The notes under the pieces: generated by a model
The model's database searches: none
Told to the model about the DNA's origin: nothing
Seen by the model: the letters and a program-made list of their open reading frames with translations, nothing else
Source of the DNA: an uncultured Chloroflexia bacterium
GTDB lineage: Bacteria; Chloroflexota; Limnocylindria; Limnocylindrales; CSP1-4
Length of the DNA stretch: 64,000 nt
Direction of reading: 5' to 3'
Assembly: GCA_963741445.1 (NCBI GenBank)
Contig: CAVUIE010000008.1
Span: 6,857-70,856 of the forward strand
Shown: positions 1,527 through 59,492 of the stretch, piece by piece
Layout: each line of letters opens with the position of its first letter
Numbering within the stretch: the stretch's first letter is position 1
Position numbers and translations under genes: made by a program

Positions 1527-2261
1527 ATGCCCCTCCCCGACCGCCCGGTGTGGCGTCTGCTCACTTCGACGCTGCTCGCCGTGGTCCTCGGGATCGGGGT
1601 CGTGGCGGGCACCGTCGCCCAGGATTCGGGGCCGGTCGCGCCCCCGGCGCCGGTCGCGACGCCGGCTCCGTCCGTGCCACCCGGCGAGGTCAAGGGCATC
1701 ACGGATCCGCCGTCGGATGTCGGCCCCGTCGTCGAGCCCGGCGACCCGAACGACCTGTCGCCGCACCTCGCCCGAGCCGTCGTCGCCACCGCCGCCGGCT
1801 CCGACGCCCGACCGCCCGACCGAAGCCGGCCAAGGTCGCGGCGACCGCCGCCGCCCCGGCCACCTACAAGGGCCGCAACCACGTCTGGATGCCGGCGCTC
1901 CGGATCGACAAGGCGGTCTCCTGGTACGCCTGCTCGAACTCGTCCTACCCGGGCAACCGCGTCTACCGCTGGGGCTGCGCCGGCGTCGAACAACGTCTAC
2001 CTCTTCGGGCACGCCTCGAGCGTCTTCCAGCCGCTCCACGACGCCTACGTCGACGGCCGGCTCAGGAAGGGCATGAAGCTCTGGTACGCCGACGGCGACG
2101 GCGTCGTCCACGCGTACGCGGTCGCGTGGTGGAAGGTCACGACCCCCACGAAGGGCGTCTGGGCCTACGCGGCGCAGTCGAAGCCGAGCCTGACCCTGCA
2201 GACCTGCCTCGGCTCGCGGAGCCAGTACCGGCTGATCGTCCGGCTCACGCAGGTCGACTGA
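1527..2261 (+). CDS. sortase-like transpeptidase with N-terminal TM anchor (frame-disrupted, about three shifts between 1750 and 1990)
   Basis: N-terminal TM segment LLTSTLLAVVLGIGVVAG and a Pro-rich linker. The C-terminal text LFGHASSVF...SLTLQTCLGSRSQYRLIVR resembles the sortase His / TLxTC / Arg signature. The middle part (YKGRNHVWMPALRIDKAVSWY...RWGCAG) reads in another frame. Confidence 0.5.
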   Translation: MPLPDRPVWRLLTSTLLAVVLGIGVVAGTVAQDSGPVAPPAPVATPAPSVPPGEVKGITDPPSDVGPVVEPGDPNDLSPHLARAVVATAAGSDARPPDRSRPRSRRPPPPRPPTRAATTSGCRRSGSTRRSPGTPARTRPTRATASTAGAAPASNNVYLFGHASSVFQPLHDAYVDGRLRKGMKLWYADGDGVVHAYAVAWWKVTTPTKGVWAYAAQSKPSLTLQTCLGSRSQYRLIVRLTQVD

Positions 2262-8243: not shown

Positions 8244-8263
8244 GGGCCGGAGTGTACGACCGA

Positions 8264-14848: not shown

Positions 14849-14858
14849 CATTCCGTCG

Positions 14859-38557: not shown

Positions 38558-38978
38558 GATCCGAATCGTACGTCGCGGGCCGCGTGGCGCGCGCCAGCGT
38601 TGCGTTTCGGTCGCGACCGGCCCGATGGCCGTCGCCTGGAACCACATCCAGGTCGCGCTCATCGACCGGCTCGGCGACGACGGCCTCGCGCTCGCGCGCC
38701 AGCTGGGACCAGCTCACCGTGTTGCTGGCCGAGGCGCTCGGCCGGAGGTAGCGTCGCCGCCCCGAAGGGCGCCTGTCATCGGGCCCTCGAGCGGCGCCTG
38801 TCATGGAGCCGACACTTGGGTCCGGGAACGAAACATTCCCGATGGTCAGGCGTCCCCTCTTGTGTCGCGCCGCTCGGCCGACCACCGTCATGAGGGCCCA
38901 GGGATGCTCCGGTCCGCGAGTCCGCGATGAGTGGCGCGACCAGGCTTCGTTCCGATCGAGAACGGCCTGGTGCACGGC

Positions 38979-39527
38979 ATGGATGACCTCGAGGCCCTGC
39001 CGGCCACCGTGGCGATGTCGACTGCTCGGAGCCATGAGGTCGTGGGAGCCATCTACGACGACCACCAGCGCGAGCTCTTTTCCTTCGCGCTGCACGCCTG
39101 CCGCGACCGTGAGGCGGCCGAGGACCTCGTCCAGGAGTCGTTCGTCCGGCTGATGATCGAGATCGACGCGGGGCGGATGCCGACCAACGTCCGCGGGTGG
39201 CTCTACCGGGTCGTCGCCAATCTCGCCGTCTCCCGGGGCCGGCGGGCGACCGTGGCCAGGCGGGGACTCCACGCGGTCGCAGAGCCCGAGGACGACCAGG
39301 GCCCGGAGCCCACCTATCTCGAGGGTGAGCGGCGATCGGACCTGGAGACCGTGCTCGGGGAGCTCGGCGCCGATGCGCGGACCGCCCTGCTCATGGCCGC
39401 GAACGGATTCAGCGGCCTCGAGATCGCCGACGCCATCCACCGGAGCCCGAGCGCGACCCGGACCCTCATGTGCCGATCACGGATCCAGCTCCGCGAGCGC
39501 CTGGTCGCGCTGGAGACCAGCGCATGA
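38979..39527 (+). CDS. ECF-type RNA polymerase sigma factor
   Basis: Region 2 (YDDHQRELFSFALHACRDREAAEDLVQESFVRL, WLYRVVANLAV) and region 4 (ALLMAANGFSGLEIADAIHRSPSATRTLMCRSR). The maximal ORF starts at GTG 38931. ATG 38979 and ATG 39015 are alternatives. The stop overlaps the anti-sigma start (ATGA). Confidence 0.85.
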   Translation: MDDLEALPATVAMSTARSHEVVGAIYDDHQRELFSFALHACRDREAAEDLVQESFVRLMIEIDAGRMPTNVRGWLYRVVANLAVSRGRRATVARRGLHAVAEPEDDQGPEPTYLEGERRSDLETVLGELGADARTALLMAANGFSGLEIADAIHRSPSATRTLMCRSRIQLRERLVALETSA

Positions 39528-42500: not shown

Positions 42501-44892
42501 GGGACCCGGCGCACCCGGCCGACGAGACGAGTCGGTACCTCTTCCACCTGACCCAGCTCGGGCTGCGCGACGTGGTCGTCCAGCGGTCGCCCCGGTTACG
42601 TCGGCGCATTCGAGTCCTGGGCGGTCCCGAACATGCTCGTCAGCGGCCGTCCGGTTCACCGGCACGGCGTACACCTCGGCCGACGTACTCGGCGTGGTTC
42701 CGGACGCAGGACCGCCGCATCGACGTCCAGCTGACGCTCGGACAAGGCACGCTACGCCCGCGCGACCAGGTGACGGTCACCGTGCGCACCACGAATGCGG
42801 CGGGCAAGCCGATCGCCGCGAGCGTCGTCCTCCGGGCGATCGACGAGAAGCTGTTCGTCCTCGGCGGCGCCCAGCTCGACGACCCGCTGATCGATATCTA
42901 CACCTCGCCTCGACTCGGGCATCATCAGCAGCTACACCTCGCATCGCGGGCCTCCGGTCGAAGGCGGCGGTGGCGGCGACACGACCGGCGGCGGCGGGGA
43001 CGACTTCGCCGGGACCAGTTCCGCGACAGCCTGCTGTTCAGGACCGTCGATCACCGGCGCGGACGGCCGAGCCTCGGCGTCGTTCCGCCTCTCGGACGAT
43101 CTCACGTCCTGGCGGATCCTCGGGTCGGCGTTCAGCGCCGACGTCAAGGCCGGGACCGGGTCGACCGAGGTCGCCGTCGGGCTGCCGTTCTTCGTCGATG
43201 CCTCGATCGCGCCGGAGTATCTCGTCACCGACCGCCCGACGATCGTCGCGCGCGCATACGGGACCGCGCTCCCGCCGGCGCGCCAGGTGAAGATCTCCGC
43301 GATCTCGCAGAGCCTCGGGCTCAAGGGCGACCCATCACGGCCGCCGCCTTCGCCGACGTCCCGATCCGGCTCCCGGCGCTGACGCTCGGCCGCACTCGGT
43401 GACGATCATCGCGACCTACGGGAGCGGTGCGTCCGCCCGCACGGACCGGCTGGTCCGCACGTTCACGCGTCGTGCGGTCGCGCCTCGCCACGACCAGGAC
43501 GTCCTACGTCGACCTGACCGGGACGGTCCACCCCGACGGCGGCACCGGGCGGACGCGGGTGGTCGTCGCCGACCGCTCCGCCGGTCGATACCTGCCGCTG
43601 CTGACCGAGCTGGCCGCCGGCGACGGCGTCCGCCTCGAGCGCGCATTCGCGGCCGCGGCCGCGAGGGACCTGCTGACCGGCCGATACGGCGAGTCGGAGG
43701 CCGAGTCCCGGCCGGCGACTTCACGGGCGCCCGCTACCAGCAGGAGGACGGCGGCATCTCGCTCGTCCCGGCTGGCAGCAGCGACCTCCAGGTCTCGGCG
43801 CTCGTCGCGCTCACCGACCCGGATGCGTTCTCCAAGTCGATGCTCACCGGCGTACTTCGCGGCCATCCGGCCGACCCGAAGGCCACCCGCGAGCGTCAGG
43901 TCTACGCGTTGGCCGGACTGGCGGGCCTCCACGCCGACGGTCCTGCCCCAGATCCGGGCGGCGGCGGCCGACGACGGCCTGACCATCCGCGAACGGCTGA
44001 TGCTCGGCCTGGGCGCGGCCGCCCTGGGCGACGCGAAGACCGCCCGGACCATCGCCGACTCGCTGATCTCCGGCTACGGCGAGGCAGCAAGGCGGATGGG
44101 CCCGGCTGCGGGTCGGCACGACCGTCGCCGACGGCGTCGAGGGCACCGCGCTGATGGCCATCCTGGCGGCGGCCACGGGCGAGCCGCTCGCCCCGGCGTT
44201 CTGGGCCTACGTCGAGGCGAACCCGATGCCCGACCTGGTGGTGGACCTCCACGCGATCGCATACGTCGAACGACTCCTCGAACGTCTGCCGCCGCGGGCC
44301 GCCAGCTTCGCCTACACGGTCGGACGGGACGCGCACGGTCGTCGACCTCAAGCCGGGCGAGACGTTCTCGATGGTCGTCACCGCACCGCAGCTGACGTCC
44401 CTCGCCATCGAGCGCCTGGCCGGGTCGATCGGCGTGACCACGGACTGGCGCGAGCCGGTCAAGGCCTCCACCATCGAGCGCGATCCCGGACATCACCGTC
44501 ACCCGCTCGGCGCGCCCGAGCGGCGCGTCGGGTCGGGTGACCTCGTCATCGTGAGCCTCAAGGTCCGGTTCGGGACCGCAGGCACCGCTCGGCTGCCACC
44601 TCGTCACCGAGCTCGTGCCGTCGGGCCTGGTCGCGGTCGGCGAGCATCGAGGGCGTCGCGTACGGACGACAGCGAGGAGCCGCCGGCGGGCTTCACGTTC
44701 CCGTTCGACCAGACCGCGCAGCGCGTGTCGTTCTGCGCCGACAACGAGACCAAGGACCACGTCGCCGACCTGCGCTACGTGGCCCGGGTCGTCACGCCGG
44801 GCACCTACACGTGGGAGCCGGCGGTCGTGGAGTCGCGGACGAGCACGAACCACGCCGCGCTGACCGGCTCGGACACGGTCACGATCCGCTGA
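39524..44892 (+). CDS. zf-HC2 anti-sigma factor fused through one TM helix to a Big_5/alpha-2-macroglobulin-like ectodomain (about 1,790 aa; many frame changes after 40330)
   Basis: N-terminal text MTDHDRARELAAAAFDFELSADDRAELRAHLAGCAQCRAF (H-x3-C-x2-C), then the TM helix AALVASAAVVVALVGGMLVWG. In the same uninterrupted frame comes VRLTPSEPLLPGTVYRFTLEG (Ig-like). A2M-family blocks then follow in changing frames:
- ILQVTDIASYLLVTDTKTLLWANDLATGGPLAG
- WLTFATDRSLYRRTDTVNLWGMIRD
- FQVDRILKPAYRLEV
- LRPRDQVTVTVRTTNAAGKPIAASVVLRAIDEKLFVL
- LSDDLTSWRILGSAFSADVKAGTGSTEVAVGLPFFVD
- a helical TED-like region
- final text VARVVTPGTYTWEPAVVESR, stop at 44892. Confidence 0.75.
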
Positions 44893-44902
44893 CCCGCCGG
44901 GC

Positions 44903-45744
44903 CTATCCCTCGGCGGGCGGCGTCGGGGTCGGGGTGGGCGTCGGCGTCGGTGTCGGGGTCGGGGTGGGTCGGCGTCGGGGCCGGCCACTCCTGCTGGCGC
45001 CACAGGTACTCGCGCAGCGTGAGCCCGCTGGCGCGGACCTTCGCGGCGACGTCCCGCCCGACGTAGCGGTAGTGCCACGGCTCGTACATGTAGCAGGTGA
45101 CGGCGTGGTCTTGCCCTTCGGGTAGCTCATGATGAAGCCGTACTTCCAGGCGTTCGCCGCCAGCCACTTGCCCTGCTTGCTGATGCCCCCAGTCCGTCCA
45201 GTCCCACGGGATCGAGCCGCCGTAGGCGCGGAAGTCGATCGAGGTGCCCGAGCTGGTGCTCGCTGTGCCCCGCCCGGGCGCTCTCCTTGAGCGCGTACGC
45301 GTAGCCGTGGACGCGGACCCAGTAGGCGAAGGTCGACTTCTGGGTGGCGTAGCTCCGGTAGCCGGACTGGACGACGAGCCGCGCGCCGGCGGCCCGTGCC
45401 GCCGTCGCCAGTGGCGGCCAGGTCCGGCGATCACGAAGCCGCCGGACGTACTGGCCGCTGTTGAGCCCGGCCGTCGAGGTGTTCTGGAGGTCCGTCGGGA
45501 CATAGCCCGACCCCAGCCGGAGCGCGGAGTCGAGGATCGTCCGCTGCCACTGCGCCGAGCGAGCGCTGCTTCGGTGAGCGTGTCGGCGACCTTGCAGGCG
45601 GGCAGCTTCGGGTGCCGCCGCGGCGCGTGGTCGGCGAGCCCGGTCGCGAGCGCCACGACGATCGCGAGGGCGATCAGCGACGCAGCGGACGAGCGGCCAC
45701 GGGAGCGGGCGCGAGGCCCGGCGATGGTCGGCAGGAAGCGGCAT
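44903..45744 (-). CDS. M15B (VanY-like) D-alanyl-D-alanine carboxypeptidase with TM anchor and C-terminal (PT)n tail (frame-disrupted)
   Basis: Motifs VVQSGYRSYATQ, GHSEHQLGTSIDF, FIMSYPKGK and CYMYEPWHYRYVGRDVAAKV are spread over three frames. The TM text is AASLIALAIVVALATGL. The tail PTPTPTPTPTPTPTPPAEG ends at 44903. Confidence 0.7.
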
Positions 45745-45828: not shown

Positions 45829-47412
45829 CTACGGCGCCGCGCTGGGGCTCGGTCCGCTCGGGCGTCGGGGTCGGCGTCGGGGTCGCCGTGGGCTTCGCGG
45901 TGGGCTTCTTCGTGGGCTTCGGGGTCGGCTTCGGCCGCGGGGTCGTCGCGGGTACCGCAGCCGCTCACGCCGCTGCCGCTCGGCCGCCTTCGTCGCCCCT
46001 TCGGGACCGCGTAGGTCTTCTTCGGGCAGCGAGCCGTCGGTCGGGAAGAGGTCGTCCGCGAGCGCACGGATCTTCTTGAGGTTCGGGATCTGGATCGAGC
46101 CGCGCGCGTCGTTCCCGGAGCCGACCAGCGGGTGGCTGATCACCGCCCGGTAGGTCCCGTCGCGGCCGATCTTCGCGGCCGCGTCGGCCAGGTCGGGAAG
46201 CAGCTTGCGGGGGACGTTGGTCGTGACCGTCTTGCCGACCGCCTTGAGCAGCCCGATCGGGTCGTTGAGGAAGCCGCCCTTGACCACGCGGTCGCGGATG
46301 CCGGACAGGACCTCCTGCTGGCGGGCGGCCCGGGTGAAGTCGCTCTCGCCGGCGGCCTTGCGGACGCGCGCGTACGCGAGGGCCTGGTTCCCGGTGAGAT
46401 GGTGCTTGCCGGCGGTGATCGAGAACCCGCGCGTGAACCCGTATTCGTCGTAGCGCGGGTCGCAGAAGGCGCGGGCGACGTTCACGTCCACGCCGCCAAG
46501 GGTGTTGACGACCTGCACGAAGCCACCGAGGGTGACCGCTGCGTAGTAGTCGACCTTGACGCCGAGCAGCTTGCCGAGCGCGCCCATCAGGACGTCGAAC
46601 CCGGACCCGTCGTTATTGGGGAACTGCTTCGGGTGGTGGCGGACGTACGAGACCAGCCCGTTGATCTTGCCGCGGTACTTGCGGCCGTCCGCGAGCGGCA
46701 CGTCGACCATGTCGCGCGGCACCGACACCATCGAGACGGTCTCGGTCGCCGGGTCCATCGAGACCACGATCATCGTGTCGGTGCGGTAGGTGTTGCGACC
46801 CACACCGGCATCGACCCCGACGATGACGCCGGTCAGGCGAGGGTCCACCGGGACGGGCGTCGGCGAGGGCGACGCGCTGGGCAGGCCGGACGGCGAGGGC
46901 GCGGCGGGGATCAGGTTGCTCGGGTCGGGCTCCGGCTCCTGCGACGGCAGGATCGCGGTGGGCGATGGCTCGACGAAGACCTCGTCGGCGGTCTCGCGCG
47001 CGACCTCGGTCGCGTAGCCCGCATAGGCCTGCGGCACGATGATCACGAGCAGGAGCAGGATGACCGGCAGAACGTCGCCCTTGCCCATCCGCGGCAGGCC
47101 GGAGGCGAACAGGCTGGACCCGACCGCCAGGAGGCGCCACACGAGCAGCCCGCCCTGGAAGGCCAGCAGGCCCCAGATGACCTCCGACTCGAGGAGCGTG
47201 GCCACGAGTCGCGGGCCGGAGGTCGTCAGCACGATGTAGACGACGGCGAGCAGCGCCAGGATCGTCGGGGTCAGGAAGATCACGCCGAGCAGCCGCCGGC
47301 CGGCCACGACGTGGCCGAGGCCGGGGACGATGGCGTCGAGGATGGCGGGGACGTAGCGCGAGCGGCGGCTCGGCGTGGCGGACACAACAGTGTCCGCGGC
47401 GTCGTCTGTCAC
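45829..47412 (-). CDS. LCP (LytR-CpsA-Psr) family cell-wall glycopolymer transferase
   Basis: The 527-aa ORF is in one frame. It has three or four N-terminal TM helices and the LCP core TDTMIVVSMDPATETVSMVSVPRDMVDVPL...GNQALAYARVRK. The basic low-complexity C-terminal tail may actually be a PKPT-type linker in another frame. Confidence 0.85.
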   Translation of the reverse strand: MTDDAADTVVSATPSRRSRYVPAILDAIVPGLGHVVAGRRLLGVIFLTPTILALLAVVYIVLTTSGPRLVATLLESEVIWGLLAFQGGLLVWRLLAVGSSLFASGLPRMGKGDVLPVILLLLVIIVPQAYAGYATEVARETADEVFVEPSPTAILPSQEPEPDPSNLIPAAPSPSGLPSASPSPTPVPVDPRLTGVIVGVDAGVGRNTYRTDTMIVVSMDPATETVSMVSVPRDMVDVPLADGRKYRGKINGLVSYVRHHPKQFPNNDGSGFDVLMGALGKLLGVKVDYYAAVTLGGFVQVVNTLGGVDVNVARAFCDPRYDEYGFTRGFSITAGKHHLTGNQALAYARVRKAAGESDFTRAARQQEVLSGIRDRVVKGGFLNDPIGLLKAVGKTVTTNVPRKLLPDLADAAAKIGRDGTYRAVISHPLVGSGNDARGSIQIPNLKKIRALADDLFPTDGSLPEEDLRGPEGATKAAERQRRERLRYPRRPRGRSRPRSPRRSPPRSPRRPRRRPRRPSGPSPSAAP

Positions 47413-47556: not shown

Positions 47557-50500
47557 ATGCCGCCTCCAGAGGGAACCTTGACCTCACGAGCCAGACCCGC
47601 GTCCCACCGGTTCATGGTGTTCTGTCAGGTCATCGCGGTGATCTCGTGGCTCGCGAGCCCGGTCGCCGGGCTTGCCGCAAGCCCCGTCGCCACCCCCGAC
47701 CCGTCGCCGACTGCGACCCAGCCTGCCGCCGAACCGACCGCCGAGCCCGACCCCTGAGCCCACCGCCGAGCCCACGCCGAGCCGACCGCCGAGCCGACCG
47801 CCGAGCCCACCGCCGAGCCGACCGCCGAGCCCACGCGCCGAGCCGAGCGCCGAGCCGACGCGCCGAGCCCACCGCCGAGCCCGACCGCCGAGCCGACCCC
47901 TGCGGCGACGCCCGCCCCGGCCACCGACACCTTCATCGTCACCTTCGCCCCGGGCACCTCCGCCGCCGCGCAGGCCGCCAGTCCTCGCCGCCGCCGGCGC
48001 CGACGTCGTCGACTCCATCCCGGTCCTGCGCATGCACGTCGTCGAGGTCGCCCGCGGCTCCGACACGGTCGCCGACCCTCCGCGCCGACGGCAACGTCTC
48101 GCGCGTCGACCCCGACCGCGTCCGCGACGCCGAGGCCGACCCCCGACGACCCGCGCTACGACGACCAGTGGTCGCTGCCACGCATCGGCTGGGACCAGGT
48201 CTACGGCACGCGTCGACCCGCCGGCACCGCGGTCGTCGCCGTCCTCGACACCGGCGTCGACGGCGGCCACCCCGACCTCGCCGGCCAGCTCGTGGCCGGC
48301 ACCACGCATCCTCGACGGCTCGGCCGGCACGACCGACCCCAACGGCCACGGCACCGCCATGGCCGGCATCATCGCCGCCGCGACCGACAACGGCACGCGG
48401 CATCGCCGGCATCGGCTACGCGGGCGTCAAGGTCATGCCGGTCACCGTCCTCGAGCGCGACCGGCCACGGCCAGGACAGCGACATCATCGAGGGCATCGT
48501 CTGGGCCGTCGAGCCACGGCGCCGACGTCATCAACATGTCCTTCAGCAACCCCGGCTACTCGCCCGGCCCTCCAGGCCGCGATCGACTACGCCTGGGCCA
48601 ACGACGTCGTCGTCGTCGCCGCGACCGGCAACGACGGCTCGCAGCACCGCCACCTTCCCGGCCGGCGACCGCGGCGTCATCGGCGTCTCCAACACCGACC
48701 AGTCCGACGCCCTCGACCGCGTCGTCCAACTACGGCGACGACGTCTTCCTCGGCGCCCCCGGCACCGACATCGTCACGCTCGCTCGCCGGCGGCGGCACC
48801 ACCAGCGTCACCGGCACCTCGGCCTCCTCGGCCGCGGTCGCCGCTGCGGCCGCCCTGCTGCGCGCCATCGACCCGGCCGCCTCCAACGGCGTCATCGTCT
48901 ACCGCCTCGCGCGCCACCGCCGACGCGGCCGGCACCGTGGCCGAGACCGGCAACGGCCGGCTCAACCTGGCGCGCGCCATCGCCGACACCGGGACCGACT
49001 TCGTCCAGCCCGCCGGCGCCACGCCGGTCGGCAGCGGCGGCCCGTTCGTCGGGCCGTACCAGATCGCCACGGCGACGGTGAACGCGACCTCGAGCCTGAA
49101 CGGCTCGGTCGGCACGATCTCGGTCGCACCCGGTGCCACGATCTTGCTGGTCATGAGCGTGACGACGACGGGGGTCGGAACGGCCAACGACTGGGACTCC
49201 TCCCGCTGGGCGCTCGCGACGTCCCCGCCTGGGGCCGCGGCGATGACCTGCGTCAACCACGCGGACCATGACGGTCCCGGCACCTTCCTCGAGATCATCC
49301 CCATCACGGCGCCGGCCGCCGCCGGAACCTACAACCTGTACCTGTACGCGTACAACGGGAGCGATTGCGCGACCGGCCAGAGCGTCCTCTTCACCCGCGC
49401 GAACGCCCTCGATAACCTCGCACCAACGGCCACGATCGATCTGCGAGCAGCCTCCGATACCGGCGCATCGAATTCGGACGACCTCACCAACGCCGCAAGC
49501 CCCATCTTCGACGTGACCTTCAGCGAGACGGTGGCCGGGCTGGCCGCGGGCGACTTCTCCAACGTCGGAACGGCCACCGGCTGCGTCTTCGGCGCCCCGA
49601 CCGGCGCGGCCGCCGCATACAACGTCACGGTCACCGGCTGTTCGGCGGGCACCCTGATCGTGCGCCTCGCCGCCAGCGCGGTCCTCGACCCCGCCGGCAA
49701 CGGCAACGCCGTCACGAACGGGCCGACCGTCACGATCGATCGGACCGGGCCGAGCGTCACGATCAACCAGGCGGCGGCGCAGGCCGATCCGACGAACGCG
49801 AGCCCGATCAACTACACGGTCGTGTTCAGCGAGCCGGTCACCGGCTTCATCACCGGCGACGTGACCTTCGCCGGCACCGCGGGCGGCGGCAAGACCGGGA
49901 CCGTGACCGGCGGCCCGACCACGTACAACGTGGCGGTCACCGGGATGACCACCTCGGGCACCGTCATCGCCACCATCGTGGCGGCGCGGGCGACCGACCT
50001 CGCCGGCAACAACAACGCCGCCTCCACCTCGACCGACAACACGGTGACCTGGGACGTGACCGCGCCGACGGTCACGATCAACCAGGCGGCGGGCCAGGCC
50101 GACCCGACCAACGCCAGCCCGATCAACTTCACGGTCGTGTTCAGCGAGGCGGTCACCGGCTTCGCCACCGGCGACGTGACCGTCGGCGGAACCTCCGGCG
50201 GGGTCAAGACCGGGACGGTCACCGGCGGCCCGACCACCTACAACGTGGCGGTCACGCGGGATGACCGGCATCGGGCACGGTGATCGCCACCATCGCCGCC
50301 GGGGTGGCCGTCGACGGCGCCGGCAACAACAACGCCGCCTCCACGTCGACCGACAACACGGTGACGTGGGACGTGACCGCCCCGACCGTCACGATCAACC
50401 AGGCGGCCGCGCAGGCTGATCCGACCAACGCGGCGACCATCAACTTCACGGTCGTGTTCAGCGAGATCGGTCACCGACTTCGCCACCGGCGACGTGTCCT

Positions 50501-53500
50501 TCGCCGGCAGCACGGCCGGCGGCACCCTGGTCGGCACGGTCAGCGGCGCCGGCACGACCTACAACGTGGCGGTCACCGGGATGACCAGCGCTGGCACGGT
50601 CGTCGCTTCGATCGGCGCCGGCGTGGCGGCCGATACGGCCGGCAACGCCAGCCTCGCCTCCACGTCGACCGACAACACCGTCACCTGGGACAACGTCGCG
50701 CCGACGGTGACGATCAACCAGGCGGCCGCCCAGGCCGACCCGACGAGGACCAGCCCGATCAACTTCACGGTGGTGTTCAGCGAGCCGGTCACCGGGTTCG
50801 CCACTGGCGACGTCACCGTCGGCGGCACGTCGGGCGGGACCAAGACCGGGACCGTCACGGGCTCGGGCACGACCTACAACGTCGCCGTGACCGGGATGAC
50901 CACCTCGGGCACGGTCATCGCGACGATCGCCGCGAATCGCGCGATCGACCTGGCCGGCAACAACAACCTGGTCTCCACCTCCACCGACAACACGGTCACG
51001 TGGGACGTGACCGCGCCCGACCGTGACGATCAACCAGGCGGCGGGACAGGCGGACCCGACCAACGGCGCGACCGATCAACTTCACGGTCGTCTTCAGCGA
51101 AGCGGTCACCGGGTTCGCCACGGGCGACGTGACGATCGCCGGCACGTCGGGCGGGACCAAGACCGGCACGGTCACGGGCTCGGGCACGACCTACAACGTC
51201 GCGGTGACCGGCATGACCTCGTCGGGCACGGTCATCGCCACGATCGTCGCCGGCGTGGCCACCGACGTCGCCGGCAACAACAACACGGCCTCGACCTCGA
51301 CCGACAACACCGTGACCTGGGACAACGTCGCGCCGACGGTCACGATCAACCAGGCGGCCGGCGCAGGCCGACCCGACCAACGGCGCGACGATCAACTTCA
51401 CGGTCGTGTTCAGCGAGGCGGTCACCGGGTTCGCCACCGGCGACGTGACGTTCGGCGGGACCGCCGGCGGGGCACGCTCGTCGGCACCGTGACCGGCGGT
51501 CCGACCACGTACAACGTGGCGGTCACGGGCATGACCAGCGCCGGCACGGTCATCGCGACGCTCGGCGCCGGCGTCGCGACCGATCTCGGCCGGCAACGCC
51601 AACGCGGCCTCGACCTCGACCGACAACACCGTGACCTGGGACAACGTCGCCCCGACGGCCGTCATCGACCTCCGGGCGGCGTCGGACAGCGGCGTCTCGA
51701 ACTCGGACGACATCACCAACGCCGCGAGCCTGGTCTTCGACGTGACCTTCAGCGAGACCGTCACCGGGCTTGCCGCGAACGACTTCTCGAACGTCGGGAC
51801 GGCGACCGGTTGCGTGCCGGGGCACCGGCCGGCAGTGGCGCGGCCTATTCGGTGACGCTCACCCTCTGCTCGCAGGGTACGGTCATCCTTCAGCTGCGGG
51901 CGGCTGCGGTGACCGACACGGCGACCAATGCCAATGCTGTCACCAACGGTCCGACCGTCACCGTCGACCGGACCGGCCCGACCGTCACGATCAACCAGGC
52001 CGCGGCGCAAGCCGATCCGACCGGCGTCGAGCCGATCAACTTCACGGTCGTGTTCAACGAATCGGTGCTCGACTTCGCCACGGGCGACGTCACGCTCAGC
52101 GGACACGGCCGGCGCCACGACCGCGACCGTCACCGGCAGCGGCACCACCTACAACGTGGCGGTCAGCGGGATGACCAACAGTCGGCACGGTGATCGCGAC
52201 CATCGCGGCCGGGGTCGCGACCGACATCGCCGGCAACACCAACGCGGCAGTCGACAGTCACCGACAACACCGTGACCTGCGACAATCGTTCGGCCCGACC
52301 GTCACGATCAACCAGGCGGCCGCGCAGGCCGATCCGACCAACGCGCGCCGATCAACTTCACGGTGGTCTTCAGCGAGACCGGTGATCGGCTTCGCCACGG
52401 GCGACGTGACGCTCAGCGGCACGGCCGGCGGGACGCTCACGGCGATCGTCAGCGGCAGCGGCACCACCTACAACGTGGCGGTCAGCGGCATGACCGCAGC
52501 GGCACGGTGATCGCCAACGCGTCGGCGCCGGGGTCGCGACCGACCTCGCTGGCAACCCCAATGCGGCAGCGACCCGACGGACAACACGGTGACCTTTGAC
52601 AACGTCGCGCCGACGGTCACGATCAACCAGGCCGCCGCGCAGGCCGATCCGACCGACTCTCGCCCGATCAACTTCACGGTCGTGTTCAGCGAGCCGGTGA
52701 CCGGCTTCGCCACCGGCGACGTGACGCTCAGCGGCACCGCCGGCGGCGCTACGACGGCGACCGTCAGCGGGCAGCGGCACGACCTACAACGTCGCGGTCA
52801 GCGGCATGACACGTCAGCGGCACGGTCGATCGCCGCAATCGCGTCGGCCAGTGGCCGTCGACCTCGCCGGCAACGCCAATGTCGGCCTCGACCAGACCGA
52901 CAACACAGTGACCTTCGACAACGTCGCTCCGACGGTCACGATCAACCAGGCCGCCGCGCAGGCCGATCCGACCACGCGACTCGCCGATCAACTTCACGGT
53001 CGTGTTCAGCGAGCCGGTGATCGGCTTCGCCACAGGCGACGTGACGCTCGGCGGGACACGGCCGGCGCCACGACGGCGATCGTCAGCGGCAGCGGCGACG
53101 ACCTACAACGTGGCGGTCAGCGGGATGACCACCTCGGGCACCGTCGTGGCCACGATCGCCGCGAGTCGCGCGACCGACCTCGCCGGCAACAACAACGCCG
53201 CCTCCACCTCGACCGACAACACGGTGACCTGGGATCGGGCGACCCATCTGGCCTTCCAGCAGGAGCCGACCGACACCGTCCACGGGAACCTGATCAGCCC
53301 GACCGTGACGGTCGCGATCCTCGATGACAACGGCCTGGTCGTCACCGAGCGCGCCGGGTCCATCACCTTGACCCCGTCGGCGCCGGGCGCGTTGCAGGTC
53401 TCGCCTGTGACCGTCGCTGTGGTCAACGGCGTGGCGACGTTCACCGGGTTGACCGCCGATCAGGTCGGCACGTACACCCTGGACGCGACGAGCGCCGGTC

Positions 53501-56500
53501 TCGTCGGGGCCACGAGCGCGTCGTTCGACGTCACCGCGGCCGGCCTGCTGATCACGGCGACCAATCGGTTCAAGGTCTACGGCCAGACGGTCGTGTTCGC
53601 CGGGACCGAGTTCACCACGAGCGGCCTGCTCGGGACCGACACGGTCGACAGCGTGACCCTGACGAGCGCGGGTGCCGCTCCGACGGCGACCGTGGCCGGC
53701 CCGTACCTCATCATCCCGTCGGCTGCCGTCGGCAGCGGGCTTGGCAACTACGCCATCACGTATGTCGACGGCGCCCTGACCGTGACCCCCGCCCCGCTGA
53801 CCGTGACCGCCGACGACCGGACCAAGACGTACGGCCAGACGGTCGTGTTCGCCGGGTCCGAGTTCTCGACGACGGGCCTGCTCAACGCCGATAGCGTGAC
53901 GAGCGTCACGCTGGCCAGTCCGGGTGCCGCACCGACAGCGACCGTGGGCGGCAGCCCGTACGCCATCACCCCGTCGAACGCGACCGGCACAGGGGTATCG
54001 AACTACACGATCGCGTACGTCGACGGCGAACTGACGGTCGATCCCGCCCCGCTCGCGATCACGGCTGACGACCGCTCGAAGGTGTACGGCCAGACGGTCG
54101 TCTTCGCGGGCACGGAGTTCAGCACGGCCGGCCTGCTCAACGCCGACACGATCGACAGCGTGACCTTGACCAGCCCCGGCGCCCTCGCCGACCGCGACGG
54201 TCGCCGGCAGCCCGTACGCCATCACCCCGTCGGCCGCGGTCGGCACGGGCCTCGGCAACTACACGATCACCTATGTCGACGGCGAGCTGACGGTCGATCC
54301 CGCCCCGCTCGCGATCACGGCTGACGACCGCTCGAAGGTGTACGGCCAGACGGTCGTGTTCGCGGGCACCGAGTTCTCGACGACGGGCCTGCTCAACGCC
54401 GATAGCGTGACGAGCGTCACGCTGGCCAGCCCCGGCTCCCCGGCGACGGCGACCGTGGCCGGCAGCCCCTACGCCATCACCCCGTCGGCCGCGGTCGGCA
54501 CCGGCCTCGTCGAACTACGCGATCACCTACGTCGACGGCGAGCTGACCGTGACGCCCGCCCTGCTGACCGTGACCGCCGACGACCGCTCGAAGGTGTACG
54601 GCCAGACGGTCGTCTTCGCGGGCACGGAGTTCACGACTTCAGGTCTCCTCAACAGCGACGACGTGACCAGCGTGACCCTCGCGAGCCCGGGCGCCCCCGC
54701 GACCGCGACCGTCGCCGGCAGCCCGTACGCCATCACCCCGAGCGCGGCGGTCGGCACCGGCCTCGGCAACTACACGATCACCTACGTCGACGGCGATCTG
54801 ACCGTCACCGCGGCCCCGCTGACCGTGACCGCCGATACTACGCGATCACCTACCTCGACGGCGAGCTGACGGTGGACCCGGCCGGCCTCACGATGACCGC
54901 CGACGACGTGACCAAGACCTACGGAGACGTGTCGTCTTCGCCGGCACCGAGTTCTCGACCACCGGCCTGCTCAACGCCGACACGGTCGACAGCGTGACGC
55001 TGACCAGCCCGGGCGCCCTCGCCACGGCCACGGTCGCGGGCAGCCCGTACGCCATCACCCCGCAGCGCCGCCGTCGGCACGGGCCTCGGCAACTACACGA
55101 TCACCTACGTCGACGGCGAGCTGACGGTGACCCAGGCCACGGCGGTCATCGCCGTGACCGGCTACTCGGTCGTCTACGACGCGCTCCCCCATACCGCCAC
55201 GGGCACGGCCACGGGCGTCCTCGGCGAGGACCTCTCGGCCGGGCTCGACCTGACGGCCACGACGCACACCGCGGTCGGCGCCTCGACCGACCCGTGGACC
55301 TTCAGCGACCCGGCCGGCAACTACGCGCCGGCGTCCGGCACGGTCGACACCGAGATCACCCCCGCCCCGCTGACGGTCACCGCCGACGACCGCTCGCAAG
55401 GTGTACGGCCAGACGGTCGTCTTCGCGGGCACCGAGTTCAGCGACGAGCGGCCTGCTCGGGACCGACGACGTCGACCAGCGTGACCCTCACGAGCCCGGG
55501 GCGGCGCCGACCGCGACGGTCGCCGGCAGCCCGTACGCCATCACCCCGAGCGCCGCGGTCGGCACCGGCCTCGGCAACTACGCGATCACCTACGTCGACG
55601 GCGAGCTGACGGTCGATCCCTCGGCGCTGACGATCACCGCCGACGACCGGACCAAGACCTACGGCCAGACGGTCGTGTTCGCCGGGACCGAGTTCACGCT
55701 ACGGCGGCCTGCTCAACAGCGACACGGTCGACAGCGTGACCCTGACCAGCCCGGGTGCACCGCGCCGACCGCCACGGTCGCGGGCAGCCCGTACGCCATC
55801 ACCCCGAGCGCCGCGGTCGGCACGGGCCTCGGCAACTACACGATCACCTATGTCGACGGCGAGCTGACGGTCGATCCCGCCACCGCTCACGATCACCGCC
55901 GACGACCGCTCGAAGATGTACGGCCAGACGGTCGTGTTCGCGGGCACCGAGTTCATCGCGACCGGCCTGCTCAACGCCGACAGCGTCACGAGCGTCACGC
56001 TGACCAGCCCCGGCGCCGCGGCGACGGCGACCGTGGCCGGCAGCCCGTACGCCATCACCCCGACCGCCGCGGTCGGGACCGGGCTCGGCAACTACGCCAT
56101 CACCTACGTCGACGGCGAGCTGACCGTCGACGCCAGCCGCCCTGCTCGATCGTGACCGCCGACGACCGCTCGAAGGTGTACGGCCAGACGGTCGTCTTCG
56201 CGGGCACGGAGTTCACGACTCAGCGTCCTGCTCAACAGCGACGACCGTGACCAGCGTGACCCTCGCGAGCCCGGGCGCGCCTCGCGACCGCGACCGTCGC
56301 CGGCAGCCCGTACGCCATCACCCCGAGCGCCGCGGTCGGCACCGGCCTCGGCAACTACGCGATCACCTACGTCGACGGCGAGCTGACCGTCACCCGGCCG
56401 ACCCTGACGGTGACCGCCGATGACCGCGTCCAAGACGTACGGCGATCGTCGTCGACCTTCGCGGGCACCGAGTTCACGACCACCGGCCTGCTCAACGCCG

Positions 56501-58068
56501 ACAGCGTGACGAGCGTCACGCTCACCAGCCCGGGCGCCCTCGCCACGGCCACGGTCGCGGGCAGCCCGTACGCCATCACCCCGTCAGCGCCGCCGTCGGC
56601 ACGGGCCTCGGCAACTACACGATCACCTACGTCGACGGCGAGCTGACCGTGACCCAGGCCACGGCGGTCATCGCCGTGACCGGCTACTCGGTCGTCTACG
56701 ACGCGCTCCCGCACACCGCCACGGGCACGGCCACGGGCGTCCTCGGCGAGGACCTCTCGGCCGGCCTCGACCTGACGGCCACGACGCACACCGCGGTGGG
56801 CGCCTCGACCGACCCGTGGACCTTCAGCGACCCGGCCGGCAACTACGCGCCCGCCAGCGGCACGGTCGACACCGAGATCACCCCCGCCCCGCTGACCATG
56901 ACGGCCGACGACCGCTCGAAGGTGTACGGCCAGACGGTCGTGTTCGCGGGCACCGAGTTCAGCACGAGCGGCCTGCTCGGGACCGACGACGTGACCAGCG
57001 TGACCCTCACGAGCCCGGGTGCGGCGCCGACCGCGACGGTGGCCGGCAGCCCGTACGCCATCACCCCGAGCGCGGCGGTCGGCACCGGCCTCGGCAACTA
57101 CGCGATCACCTACGTCGACGGTGAGCTGACGGTGGATCTCGCCTCCCTGACCATCACCGCGGACGACATCTCGAAGCTGCCGGGGCTCACCTACACATTC
57201 GCCGGCACCGAGTTCTCGACCGTGGGACTCCAGAATGCCGACACCGTCAATTCGGCAACCCTCGTGAGCGCGGGAGCGCCGGCATTGGCACCACCCGGCA
57301 CCTACCCGATCTTCATCTCCACCGCCATCGGAACGGGCCTCGCGAACTACACCATCACGTACGTGCAGGGCACCTTCACCGTCGGGAACGTGACTCCGGA
57401 CGTCGGGGACGCGGCGATCACCACGACGGCGACGGCCGCGGTAGACGGCGCGGTCTCGATCGTCGATCCGGACCCCGGTCAGACCTTGACGCTGACGATC
57501 ACGGTCGCGCCGACCCACGGGACCGCGACGGTCGCCGCCGATGGGACGTTCACCTACACGCCGACCGGCATGTATACGGGCGACGACACCTTCACGATCC
57601 AGGGATGCGATGACTTCGCGCCGCCCGCCTGCGACACCGGCACGGTGACGATCTCGGTCTATCCGGTCGCCGTTCCCGACGCCGGGGTGACAAGCGAGGG
57701 CAAGACGGTGGAAGTCGATGTCGAGGCGAACGACATCGGGGACGCCGGGCTACCGCAGATCGTCAGTGGACCGGCCCATGGCACGGCGACGGTCGGCTCC
57801 ATCATCTACACGCCCGAATGCCGGCTTCAGCGGGACGGACCACGTCGTCTACCGGATCTGCAGCCCCAACGACCCGGCCCTGTGCGACGACGCGACCCTG
57901 ACGATCACGGTCGCCGAGGCCCCGCCCGCCACCGACGGCGACCCGTTCATCGCGTCGCCGCTCGTTCCGATCCGATCGACGACGATCTGGCTGGCGATCA
58001 CGTTCGGCCTGATCGCTGCCGGCGCCGGCGCCATCTTCGTCACCACCCGGCGGCGTCGGCGGGCCTGA
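47557..58068 (+). CDS. giant secreted/anchored subtilisin-like (S8) protease-repeat protein, about 3,500 aa (dozens of frame changes as assembled)
   Basis: Domain order:
- Signal-like N-terminus (MPPPEGTLTSRARPASHRFMVFCQVIAVISWLASPVAGLAA), with ATG 47614 as the alternative start.
- AEPT repeat linker.
- I9-like propeptide and S8 domain.
- 12 Ig-like 105-aa repeats.
- About 15 MBG-like 85-aa repeats.
- HGTATV...FTYTP cadherin/VCBS-like modules.
- C-terminal TM helix WLAITFGLIAAGAGAIFV plus RRRRRA, stop at 58066-58068. Confidence 0.8.
47728..47900 (+). repeat. 12-nt tandem repeat GCCGAGCCSACC (Ala-Glu-Pro-Thr linker), about 14 units including 11- and 13-nt units
   Basis: Direct reading gives gccgagccgacc / gccgagcccacc units repeated head to tail. 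Off-length units (gccgagcccac, gccgagcccacgc, gccgagccgacgc) and an in-frame TGA at 47755-47757 break the reading frame. Confidence 0.8.
47926..48990 (+). other. inhibitor-I9-like propeptide plus peptidase S8 (subtilase) catalytic domain of the giant protein
   Basis: DTFIVTFAPGTS...RMHVVEV is the propeptide. The catalytic Asp is in AVLDTGVDGGHPDL, the His in DPNGHGTAMAGIIAA and the Ser in SVTGTSASSAAVAAAAALL. These are read across several frames between 48.0 and 48.9 kb. Confidence 0.8.
49431..53235 (+). repeat. tandem coding repeats of about 315 bp (105 aa, Ig-like), arranged B-A6-B-A4
   Basis: A-type units start with GTSACGATCAACCAGGC at 49756, 50071, 50388, 50707, 51023, 51339, 51984, 52301, 52616 and 52935 (TVTINQAA.QADPTN..PINFTVVFSE.VTGFATGDVT..GT.GG...GTVTG...TYNVAVTGMT.SGTVIATI......D.AGNNN.AST.STDNTVTWD). 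B-type units are at 49431 and 51661 (IDLRAASD.G.SNSDD.TNAAS..FDVTFSETV.GLAA.DFSNVGTATGC). Confidence 0.85.
53560..57400 (+). repeat. tandem coding repeats of about 252-256 bp (84-85 aa, MBG-domain-like), about 15 units plus two copies of a variant unit
   Basis: Unit text: TADDRSKVYGQTVVFAGTEF.T.GLLN.D.V.SVTL.SPGA...ATVAGSPYAITPSAAVGTGLGNY.ITYVDGELTV.PA.L. TACGGCCAGACGG recurs at 53578, 53830, 54085, 54341 and 54597, and so on. The variant unit QATAVIAVTGYSVVYDALPHTATGTATGVLGEDLSAGLDL starts at 55127 and again at 56649. Confidence 0.8.
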
Positions 58069-58136: not shown

Positions 58137-58211
58137 TGGCGAGTGGCCAAGCGGTAAGGCGCCTGACTCTGGATCAGGAGATCGAAGGTTCGAATCCTTC
58201 CTCGCCAGCCA
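58137..58211 (+). tRNA. tRNA-Gln (anticodon CUG), CCA encoded
   Basis: Cloverleaf read by hand. Acceptor stem UGGCGAG/CUCGCCA, D arm GCC-AAGCGGUAA-GGC, anticodon stem CCUGA/UCAGG with loop CUCUGGA, T arm GAAGG-UUCGAAU-CCUUC, discriminator G, then CCA. It closely resembles canonical bacterial tRNA-Gln. Confidence 0.95.
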
Positions 58212-58266: not shown

Positions 58267-59010
58267 CTACGCTGCTGACGCAACGGCCCTCGGGGTCGAC
58301 GTGCGTCCGGCAGGCTCGGGAGCGCTGGCAGATGGATCGAACCCCTTCGCGATCAGCCACACCGCCATGACCATCTCCTGCAGGGCGAGCGGCGCCATGA
58401 AGAAGCCCAGCGAGAGCTCGAACATGCTTCCAAGCGGCGCCACGATGTACAGCGTGGCCCCCGCGAGCCCCCAGATGGACAGCCACCGAGGCACCAGCCG
58501 CGACTGGAAGAGCACGACGTAGAACATCAGCGCGCCGAGGACGAACGGGATGGCGAGCAGCTGGTCCCAGATCACGGTCTCGGTCGTCCGCACGAAGCCG
58601 GCGAGCGGTCCCGCATCCGGCTCCTTGCTGAGTGCGATCAGCAGCAGCCACCCGAGCGCGATGACGACGTAGAAGATCGTCTCGATCGCTCCGCGGAAGA
58701 CGACGTAGCCCATGGCCAGCGTCTCGTCGTACCGCTTGCCGACCGGCCAGAACACGACCGGAACCATCGCGAGCGCGAGACCCGCCACCAGGAGGAGGAG
58801 GACGCCGACGGCCACCTGGTTCGACTGCGCCGCGACCTGGGCCAGGTACGCGGGACCTGACAGGATTTCGGCCGTGACGACGGCGCTGAGGACGATACCC
58901 ACCGTTCCGATGATGTACAGCACGCCGATCCAGACGGCGGCCTTCCGATCCGCGCTCATCCGCGGCTCCGCCGTCGCGACGGCGACGTCTCGATTCGTGT
59001 CCATCTCCAT
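58267..59010 (-). CDS. DUF4386-like polytopic membrane protein
   Basis: Intact 247-aa ORF with six hydrophobic helices (AAVWIGVLYIIGTVGIVLSAVV, VAVGVLLLLVAGLALAMVPVVFW, IFYVVIALGWLLLIAL, ...PRWLSIWGLAGATLYIV...), typical of that family. Confidence 0.75.
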   Translation of the reverse strand: MEMDTNRDVAVATAEPRMSADRKAAVWIGVLYIIGTVGIVLSAVVTAEILSGPAYLAQVAAQSNQVAVGVLLLLVAGLALAMVPVVFWPVGKRYDETLAMGYVVFRGAIETIFYVVIALGWLLLIALSKEPDAGPLAGFVRTTETVIWDQLLAIPFVLGALMFYVVLFQSRLVPRWLSIWGLAGATLYIVAPLGSMFELSLGFFMAPLALQEMVMAVWLIAKGFDPSASAPEPAGRTSTPRAVASAA

Positions 59011-59019
59011 TTCTCCCGA

Positions 59020-59492
59020 CTACTCGGGTCGGGGCGACAGGATCACGACCGCTGTCTCCCGCGAGCGACGCGCGACGTAGGCGTCGAGGTCCTTGTCGAA
59101 GCCGGCCCACCTGGCCCACAGGCGCGGTCGCTCGTCCTTGTCGGCCGCACGGCCGTGGACGGCGCGCGACCCGCCGGGCACGTCGACGGTGACGTCGGGG
59201 TGGGCCTGCAGGTTGAGCCACCACGCGGGCTCGGCATCGGCCCAGCCGTTCATGGCCAAGGTGACCAGGTCGGGGCCGTCCTCGAAGTAGGCCAGGATGG
59301 CCTTCCGCTCCTCCCGCTGCGACGCCCGATGGTCCGGAGTCGCAGCATGCCCTGGCGGTCGGCCCTCGCGGTCAAGAGGCCGAGCCGGCCGCCCGTGATC
59401 GAATAAACGGCACGCTGCATCACCCAGAACGAACGGATGAACCAGCGCGGCGGCAGATGCGCAGACTGCTCGTGCTGTCCGGTCACATGCAT
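59020..59492 (-). CDS. deazaflavin (F420H2)-dependent nitroreductase family (DDN-like) protein (one frameshift near 59310)
   Basis: Starts at ATG 59492 (MHVTGQHEQSAHLPPRWFIRSFWVMQRAVYSITGGRLG...LRLRTIGRRSG). It then continues in the next frame (RKAILAYFEDGPDLVTLAMNGWADAEPAWWLNLQAHPDVTVDV...RLWARW) to the stop at 59020. Confidence 0.75.

Follow-up and report, generated by a model that had tools for sequence, protein, structure and literature searches.

A single giant gene for a predicted stalked, surface-tethered subtilase in an uncultured Limnocylindria genome

The DNA analysed here (the window) is a stretch of 64,000 nucleotides (nt) from an uncultured Chloroflexia bacterium, taken from contig CAVUIE010000008.1 of assembly GCA_963741445.1. 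Positions 47557-58068 of its + strand are confirmed to be one continuous gene, in which an S8 protease head is carried on a repeat stalk with a C-terminal anchor. The gene is not visible as such in the deposited sequence. No single open reading frame (ORF) crosses the region; the longest stop-free piece has 841 codons, and overlapping + strand ORFs of 100-840 codons occupy all three frames. After the frame is followed across the breaks, the gene has the parts listed below, all on the + strand (lengths of protein parts in amino acids, aa; Ig, immunoglobulin; TM, transmembrane).

47557..47679, +, start and signal peptide, by direct reading
47680..47930, +, AEPT (Pro/Thr/Glu/Ala-rich) low-complexity linker of ~85 aa between the signal peptide and the prodomain
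47931..48150, +, subtilase N-terminal prodomain of the fervidolysin type, putatively I9-like in role (PF22148)
48151..48975, +, Peptidase S8 catalytic domain, thermitase-like (PF00082, E = 7e-32)
48976..49422, +, D130, a beta-sandwich module of ~130 aa without annotation, directly after the S8 domain
49423..53235, +, first array, 12 Ig-like domains of ~105 aa (Pfam, TRF, repeat parsing, tblastn)
53236..53544, +, BigX, a single-copy Ig-like junction domain between the two arrays (Invasin_D3 at 8e-4, under the cut-off)
53545..57400, +, second array, 13 MBG_2 domains of ~85 aa, one remnant and two 77-aa inserts (PF18676, 2e-34)
57414..57921, +, two Big_9 or cadherin-like (VCBS-like) modules (PF17963, 4.7e-22; Cadherin_4 and Cadherin_5 also match)
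57922..58068, +, C-terminal tail: PPATD (57922-57936), SPLVPIRS, TM helix IWLAITFGLIAAGAGAIFV (57985-58041), TTRRRRRA and the stop codon

The frame can be followed by base composition. The G+C content of the window is 70-75%, and within the region the G+C content at third codon positions (GC3) is 0.8-1.0 in exactly one + frame at each point and about 0.55-0.65 in the other two. The favored frame hops along the region. Frame tracking by a Viterbi procedure, trained on positional base composition with a penalty for stops, threaded the region as 56 segments with ~53 frame switches, or ~5.0 per kb. Of the 53 tallied switches, 37 shift the frame by a net +1 and 16 by a net -1. The stitched translation of ~3,500 aa is repetitive and domain-like from end to end. 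The stop codon is at 58066-58068. At the other end, TTG at 47578 is the probable start in preference to ATG at 47557, because relatives conserve a TLT tripeptide and leader there and because AGAGGGA lies upstream. Promoter and terminator scans of both flanks yielded no sites; these scans are uninformative for Chloroflexota.

Scanning genomes for the conserved C-terminal module gave 19 loci, which are cited below by L numbers. The close loci belong to metagenome-assembled genomes (MAGs) named "uncultured Chloroflexia bacterium MFD..." and to one "Candidatus Limnocylindrales" MAG. Searches by tblastn with each domain of the window gene placed the parts identically in 12 loci: prodomain, S8, D130 (present in most of them), Ig array, BigX, MBG array with inserts, two Big_9 modules (Big_9a and Big_9b), and tail. 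Three loci carry the gene without any break.

L003, 404-10429, intact single ORF of 3,341 aa
L007, 2300-10705, intact single ORF of 2,801 aa
L011, 4346-10702, intact single ORF of 2,118 aa

The region could be read as several genes, one each for the protease, the Ig-repeat array, the MBG-repeat array and a cadherin-like anchored protein, since gene callers split it in this way both in the window and in L001, where five genes are called. The three intact ORFs cover the whole architecture and therefore remove this alternative. The coding signal in the window has no gaps, there is no internal start or signal-peptide feature, and the breaks lie inside domains rather than between them. Separate genes with their own starts, a case raised in an earlier note on this DNA, are therefore extremely improbable. 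The continuous architecture across frames which that note proposed is seen in the GC3 signal, in the set of Pfam domains and in the intact ORFs of relatives.

By direct reading, the N-terminus resembles a signal peptide, with the n-region RARPASHR and the hydrophobic core FMVFCQVIAVISWLASPVAGLAA, and is kept in L003, L007, and L011. Cleavage is likely after GLAA. In the AEPT linker, Tandem Repeats Finder (TRF) detected a 12-nt period with 14 copies at 47726-47898; the Pfam PT repeat model scores 24.3 bits, under its cut-off. Relatives have a P/S/T/E-rich linker at the same position. Both parts had been proposed in the earlier note, together with an I9 propeptide. The last identification needs revision. 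The I9 model of Pfam has no match in the stitched protein, and the prodomain is matched by PF22148, Fervidolysin_NPro-like, at E = 1.4e-4 and 22.6 bits with a cut-off of 21. The prodomain of the intact L003 scores 26.7 bits.

The catalytic domain is better defined. PF00082 scores 111 bits on the stitched window protein (cut-off 21.8) and 126-134 bits on the intact relatives. The top-scoring solved structures, Ak.1 protease (1dbi, 1.7e-43), thermitase and subtilisin Carlsberg, align end to end at E = 1e-39 to 1e-43. After frame correction, the motifs are VLDTGVD for Asp, NGHGTAMAG for His, ATGNDGS for the oxyanion Asn and TGTSASS for Ser. All four residues fall on catalytic positions in the alignment to Ak.1 protease, and the family consensus keeps them. 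The Asp/His/Ser triad, claimed earlier to be intact, is present as the DTG, HGT, and GTS motifs, accompanied by the oxyanion GND. Judged from these motifs, the S8 head is predicted to be catalytically competent. With the head region as query, hundreds of S8 proteins were recovered; the top one, at 76% identity, lies on a 1.16-Mb contig and is fragmented there too.

The ~130-aa domain expected after the subtilase was also found; this domain, D130, has no match in Pfam or NCBIfam. An AlphaFold2 model built from an alignment of 17 sequences shows seven strands in a beta-sandwich, with a mean pLDDT of 64 (moderate confidence). The comparison of this model with the PDB by Foldseek gave nothing at E<=0.001, and the best TM-scores were ~0.3, to CBM16 and TNF-like jelly rolls; D130 is therefore given no fold family. 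DUF7035 is listed for some homologs and was considered as its identity, but DUF7035 maps to the start of Big_12 and was rejected. An exhaustive phmmer search at E<=1e-3 identified D130 in 394 representative proteins. Many of these are other large proteins (1,000-3,400 aa) that have it close to the N-terminus and carry VWA/SpaA or LamG/DUF6701 domains. In the unrelated giant surface proteins P0264, P0287, P0320, and P0384, which include combinations of VWA with SpaA-type stalks and of LamG/pentaxin with DUF6701, D130 is again near the N-terminus, in some cases as 2-3 copies. D130 is a candidate for a new domain family, a mobile module of surface proteins, possibly with a binding function. Within the giant-protease family, no D130 is detectable between the catalytic domain and the first Ig-like domain of L009 and L010, and L003 and L006 show only a partial, divergent match. 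D130 is therefore an accessory module that varies within the family.

The stalk begins with 12 Ig-like repeats of 105 aa, the number given in the earlier note. They are ordered as one Big_13-like, six Big_12, one Big_13-like and four Big_12 domains, that is, 10 Big_12 and two Big_13-like domains. Big_12 matches at 3.6e-11, and Big_13 matches at 2e-4, under the Pfam cut-off. TRF gives a period of 317 nt with 11 copies for this array. BigX follows in one copy, at the same position in 12 of 12 related loci. For the second array, with a TRF period of 255-258 nt, about 15 MBG-like repeats of 85 aa had been claimed. This is close to the count here of 13 MBG_2 domains, one 23-aa remnant and two 77-aa inserts. 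The inserts, at 55139-55369 and 56661-56891, look identical. They have no Pfam match, and neither they nor BigX reach the cut-off of any NCBIfam model. The BLASTP comparison with a true YDG domain was not significant, so they are left unnamed.

The remnant, at 54837-54904, encodes 23 aa of an MBG repeat whose interior of ~187 nt is lost, a length that is not a multiple of 3. A 68-nt unit is present twice in 54769-54904 with 78% identity, and the syntenic ortholog in L002 has no such remnant. Either a true deletion or a local assembly error could account for it. The two modules that close the stalk, described earlier as cadherin- or VCBS-like, are supported as such by the Big_9, Cadherin_4, and Cadherin_5 matches; the VCBS_repeat model TIGR01965 is over its cut-off in the homolog P0124. 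At the DNA level, the repeat copies of the window share 60-90% identity; a single 300-nt pair reaches 96-97%.

These domains are known from stalks. MBG has been called a stalk domain (PMC9210967), and the tandem-repeat folds illustrated for Periscope Proteins include BIg_13 and Invasin_D3 (PMC9704523). In the tetra-tandemer of MpAFP, four 104-aa Ig-like repeats span ~190 Å, or ~4.75 nm per repeat (PMC4083281). By this measure, the stalk of ~30 domains, if extended, would be roughly 100 nm or more in length.

Stalk length varies in the family on a conserved head. The numbers of domains range from 4 to 14 for the Ig-like type and from 5 to 15 for the MBG type. The catalytic head is the most conserved part of the family, 71-77% identical in relatives whose stalks differ two-fold in length. 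The window is fully syntenic with L001 and L002, in the order ECF sigma, anti-sigma, alpha-2-macroglobulin, VanY, LytR-CpsA-Psr (LCP), giant gene, and tRNA-Gln. At this orthologous locus, the protein is ~1,760 aa in L004 and ~3,300-3,500 aa in L002 and the window. L004 has 4 Ig-like and 5 MBG-type domains; L002 and the window have 12 and ~15, each count coming from a single consensus assembly. The three are distinct species-level genomes, with dS of about 0.3-0.9. The syntenic ortholog in L002 agrees with the window in its repeat counts, which makes an assembly expansion in the window unlikely.

In three relatives, the arrays contain tandem multi-domain units.

L003, 2630-4519, 945-nt unit of three Big_12 domains, two copies, 100% identical
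L003, 7040-9253, 738-nt unit of MBG-MBG-insert, three copies, 100% identical
L007, 4166-7000, 948-nt tandem unit, 99.7-100% identical
L013, 8369-9850, 738-nt tandem unit, 100% identical

The perfect identity of such units indicates that arrays in the family have grown recently by unit duplication and are still doing so. Alternatively, the units possibly became identical when the assembly homogenised the consensus. The repeats of the window itself are older than these units. A literature search combining Limnocylindria and subtilisin found no paper on this giant-protease family.

The tail allows two readings. Its translation is PPATDGDPFIASPLVPIRSTT-IWLAITFGLIAAGAGAIFV-TTRRRRRA-stop, so the TM helix and the RRRRRA end on which the earlier note based a membrane anchor are there. 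The TM anchor is only one reading of them, because the tail has a conserved three-part form with P-x-T-D and because the window contains a gene with a sortase domain. Family tails consist of [LIVAMP]-P-x-T-D, a spacer of 13-20 residues that often contains [ST]P[LFI]G[PT][VI], a hydrophobic helix of ~20 residues and three to five Arg. P-x-T-D is found in every family member, with G in place of D only in L013 (VPDTG), and also in a paralogous Big_9 protein. This could be a sorting signal, which the conserved sortase of the lineage or another sorting enzyme would cleave so as to attach the stalk covalently to the cell wall; sortase-type signals have such a three-part shape (PMC4617865). The sub-threshold NCBIfam matches of the tail are all sortase-type or other C-terminal sorting domains, but none of the curated sorting-signal models reaches its cut-off. 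TIGR01167 scores 13.5 bits against 15.9, over the hydrophobic and basic part only. The hydrophobic stretch and the positive extreme C-terminus are present, but the pentapeptide is not of the LPXTG type, nor is the motif LAXTG, and the spacer between T-D and the helix exceeds that of classical signals. A regular-expression search of ~460 kb, comprising the window and the loci, found the same tail only in this family and in one Big_9 paralog, and conservation of the tail could be inherited with the adjacent Big_9 domain.

The sortase-domain gene is on the same strand, far upstream of the giant gene.

1573..2258, +, divergent sortase-domain gene, motifs LFGH, TLQTC, and R (PF04203, 31.6 bits with a cut-off of 26.6)

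It contains one frameshift. Its family, of 243 aa and highly conserved in this lineage, has 341 homologs, and no NCBIfam sortase class model matches the window protein. In the window it is 46 kb away from the giant gene. In L001, the closest relative, an ortholog lies on the giant-gene contig at a similar distance upstream; no sortase was found in the other 20-kb loci. The gene is a candidate for the enzyme that would process the tail. The TM anchor is kept as the default, and a processed sorting signal is a live alternative, possible though clearly the less probable of the two.

Some side observations concern these tails and sortases. The MAGs of L014 (~8395-10588) and L015 (~7603-10270), which have the giant protease, also carry a paralog composed of many Big_9 modules. 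The L014 paralog ends with PPPTD...TM...RRR and has no S8 domain within 10 kb upstream. In L021, a gene for a 612-aa FG-GAP protein is inserted next to the sortase, an insertion that the window does not have, and the sortase neighbors in L021 include no obvious substrate.

The ~53 frame switches have to be explained. In a five-way DNA alignment, the S8 domain of the window has 10 single-base insertions of its own in ~800 nt, mostly C or G, at columns where the four relatives agree. This non-repetitive domain holds the densest run of frameshifts in the gene. The giant gene had been described as the most indel-dense region of the window, owing to near-identical repeats. Neither part of that description holds: the stretch 38945-44886, encoding the sigma factor, anti-sigma factor and alpha-2-macroglobulin, has 5.4 switches per kb against 5.0, the repeat copies are 60-90% identical, and both the worst segment (S8) and the alpha-2-macroglobulin stretch are non-repetitive. 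The bias is also shared, with 24 net +1 and 8 net -1 among the 32 switches of that stretch. Elsewhere in the window the density reaches 5.3-6.3 per kb, and housekeeping-type genes are shifted as well.

The breaks are most likely consensus sequencing errors. Programmed frameshifting or phase variation was rejected, as the ~53 sites have no common motif and neighboring genes show the same pattern. An error model of homopolymers only was rejected too, as most insertions are a single C or G in a mixed GC context with no long runs. The catalogue of related MAGs is Nanopore-only, assembled with Flye and polished with one round of Medaka, and the authors of the catalogue address the Nanopore errors that persist where coverage is low (PMC12313526).

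A true pseudogene, once functional and now decaying by frameshifts in this strain, would also produce broken frames. The number of switches, the shortened MBG repeat and the intact LCP gene next door, which shows that some genes in the stretch are clean, agree with this explanation. Decaying bacterial pseudogenes are expected to have stops, relaxed dN/dS and a deletion bias. The giant gene has no nonsense codon; its sole short stop-crossing excursion, at 47755, is attributed to a paired indel because it restores the AEPT period. The dN/dS ratio against orthologs is 0.16-0.25 over in-frame segments, close to the 0.15 of the intact LCP gene, and GC3 is still 0.9-1.0. The gene has accordingly been under purifying selection, as far as these substitution ratios show. 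Insertions outnumber deletions by 37 to 16, opposite to the bias known in bacterial pseudogenes. Unrelated neighbors have equal density and bias, and the relatives come from assemblies with acknowledged indel errors. Decay in this strain is very unlikely.

The explanation preferred here is one functional gene in an error-riddled consensus, encoding a surface-tethered stalked subtilase of ~3,500 aa; its probability is put at about 0.62. Several points weigh against it. The window copy cannot be translated as deposited. One MBG repeat is short by ~187 nt, a length not divisible by 3, which could reflect real damage to the gene. The indels are patchy: the LCP gene has 0 in 1.4 kb between heavily broken stretches of ~5 per kb, so a uniform error process does not fit. 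A patchy density could possibly arise from local coverage, strain mixture or polishing. Finally, the substrate and physiological role of the protein are suggested by analogy. The window also includes a nearly unbroken stretch, 11898-17511, with 0.2 switches per kb.

The giant gene is flanked by an LCP gene and a tRNA gene, as had been stated before.

46024..47406, -, LytR-CpsA-Psr (LCP) gene, intact, in divergent orientation (PF03816, 3.4e-35)
58137..58211, +, tRNA-Gln (CTG), 69 nt past the giant-gene stop (ARAGORN)

The tRNA-Gln is also 3' of the orthologs in L002 and L004. Synteny of LCP with the giant gene is seen only with L001/L002 and L004, and no LCP gene is present within 2.5-5 kb upstream in L007-L013. 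Being limited to the closest relatives, the adjacency gives no functional support, and LCP was rejected as a functional partner, its adjacency being found only in the two closest genomes. Farther upstream, 38945-44886 (+) encodes the ECF sigma factor, the anti-sigma factor and a large bacterial alpha-2-macroglobulin, in an order kept in L001 and L004. Between alpha-2-macroglobulin and LCP lies a VanY-type D-Ala-D-Ala carboxypeptidase gene at 44916-45676 (-; PF02557, 3.9e-28), with about four frameshifts. Downstream, 58337-59314 (-) contains an F420H2-dependent quinone-reductase-like segment and a DUF4386 membrane segment head to tail, which the frame tracker joins over two switches. They are either a fused gene or two adjacent genes.

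On the preferred explanation, the protein would be exported by the Sec pathway through its N-terminal signal peptide. The prodomain would act as a folding chaperone and inhibitor, and its autocatalytic removal would take the AEPT linker along. The C-terminus would retain the protein at the cell surface, by the TM helix and Arg cluster or by a processed derivative of the tail. A rod of ~30 domains of the beta-sandwich and MBG types, ~100 nm long if extended and perhaps stiffened by Ca2+, would then carry an active thermitase-like subtilase and D130 at its distal tip. From there, the tethered head may digest proteinaceous material, or remodel surface material, away from the cell while attached to it. 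Over evolutionary time, stalk length would be adjusted by duplication and loss of multi-domain DNA units. The alpha-2-macroglobulin protease trap encoded upstream may form a functional pairing with the giant tethered protease.

The same architecture could belong to a fibrillar adhesin or surface fibril whose S8 domain is self-directed, serving maturation, shedding or remodelling of the fibre or of neighboring surface proteins rather than nutrition. Big_12/13, MBG_2, and Big_9 are stalk-type domains (PMC9210967, PMC9704523). D130 homologs are at the N-terminal tips of other giant surface proteins, a position typical of binding modules, and the alpha-2-macroglobulin gene lies upstream in three syntenic genomes. 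PrtP, a cell-envelope protease compared below, itself promotes adhesion according to one report (PMC1876236). However, it is the catalytic head that is the most conserved part, all catalytic residues are kept, and domain scans found no recognised adhesive domain. The adhesin is rather unlikely on this balance, although nothing in the data separates a nutritional from a self-directed role of the protease. Similarly doubtful is a more specific picture: a length-variable "periscope enzyme" whose active subtilase would be held ~50-130 nm from a monoderm Chloroflexota cell on a stalk tuned by multi-domain units gained and lost. Its novel C-terminal signal (Phi-P-x-T-D, spacer, TM helix, Arg cluster) would be processed by the divergent, unclassified sortase of the lineage, and D130 would be a tip binding substrates or surfaces, as in the other giant surface proteins that share it.

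If the corrected gene is expressed, its product would be larger than any subtilase named in the literature cited here and almost twice the length of PrtP. A surface-tethered subtilase would show how an abundant uncultured lineage of soil Chloroflexota may obtain peptides, the enzyme acting well away from the envelope while both it and its products are kept close to the cell. The family is a natural series of stalk lengths, from ~1,760 to ~3,500 aa, on one conserved catalytic head, and could serve tests of stalk length. The interest of the locus lies in its size, in the variable stalk on a conserved enzyme head, in the P-x-T-D tail that current sorting-signal models do not cover and in the unannotated D130; no expectation is overturned. 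It also has a bearing on annotation. An indel-rich long-read MAG consensus breaks the giant gene into many "hypothetical" fragments, and the homologs found in two protein searches with parts of the giant protein as queries were all ~1,000 aa or shorter. Because of this fragmentation, protein catalogues under-report such giant architectures.

The design had been called unusual in the earlier note. This is true of the size and stalk composition, but the plan is shared with lactococcal PrtP (1,942 aa), which has S8, Fn/Ig-like domains, a variable W repeat and an anchor, and with streptococcal C5a peptidase (PMC7783315). Like PrtP/lactocepin and C5a peptidase, the giant protein has a signal peptide, a prodomain, an N-terminal S8 domain and beta-sandwich domains downstream. 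Wall-proximal variable repeats and, as predicted for the giant protein, C-terminal retention are also common to them, and the tethered extracellular proteolysis described for that group (PMC7783315) may by analogy be the role here. In contrast to the group, Pfam finds no PA insert (PF02225) in the S8 domains of the window, L003, and L007. There is no Fn3_5 (PF06280) after S8, where D130 stands in its place, and there is no helical H domain and no LPXTG. Since the PA insert, Fn3_5, and LPXTG are all absent, the giant protein lies outside the PrtP/ScpA group. Its stalk of Big_12/Big_13-like, MBG_2, and Big_9 domains alone has ~3,000 aa, compared with 1,942 aa for the whole of PrtP. The catalytic domain is nearest to thermitase and Ak.1, and the host belongs to Chloroflexota, not to Firmicutes.

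The stalk resembles those of periscope proteins and fibrillar adhesins such as SasG, Rib, Sgo0707, and the MpAFP/MpIBP extender, in which a tandem chain of beta-sandwich domains connects an N-terminal head to a C-terminal attachment. Between these two ends, the giant protein has tandem repeats of more than 50 residues, 12 of ~105 aa and ~15 of ~85 aa. Repeat number varies between related genomes in both, and the 100% identical units of relatives fit recombinational change (PMC9704523, PMC4083281). The head is an enzyme instead of a ligand-binding domain. The periscope class is defined by high repeat identity, which is seen in L003, L007, and L013 (99-100%), whereas the repeats of the window are 60-90% identical. 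Periscope proteins vary at the strain level, whereas the length differences here are between species-level genomes with dS of about 0.3-0.9.

Thermitase, Ak.1 protease and subtilisin Carlsberg (S8A) align with the catalytic domain over their full length, with the triad and oxyanion Asn kept. They are free secreted enzymes of ~280 aa, and the S8 domain aligns without a large insert to subtilisins of 275-280 aa. By direct reading, the Ser motif is GTSASSA in the giant-protease family, in place of the usual GTSMA(S/T)P of subtilisins. The prodomain match to PF22148 is a likeness to fervidolysin, a cell-associated subtilase of Fervidobacterium. Fervidolysin has beta-sandwich domains after the catalytic domain and is not known to carry a long repeat stalk. 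The giant protein differs from it in D130, for which no sequence or fold match to a solved structure was found.

A functional analogy is offered by the tetrabrachion-STABLE complex of Staphylothermus marinus, in which a long stalk displays a subtilisin-like protease at tens of nanometres from the cell. The STABLE protease and its coiled-coil S-layer stalk are different proteins joined non-covalently, whereas the giant protein combines head and stalk in one polypeptide of beta-sandwich domains. Taken together, these analogies suggest that the giant protein applies the logic of a cell-envelope proteinase to the stalk of a fibrillar adhesin, scaled up and with no new principle.

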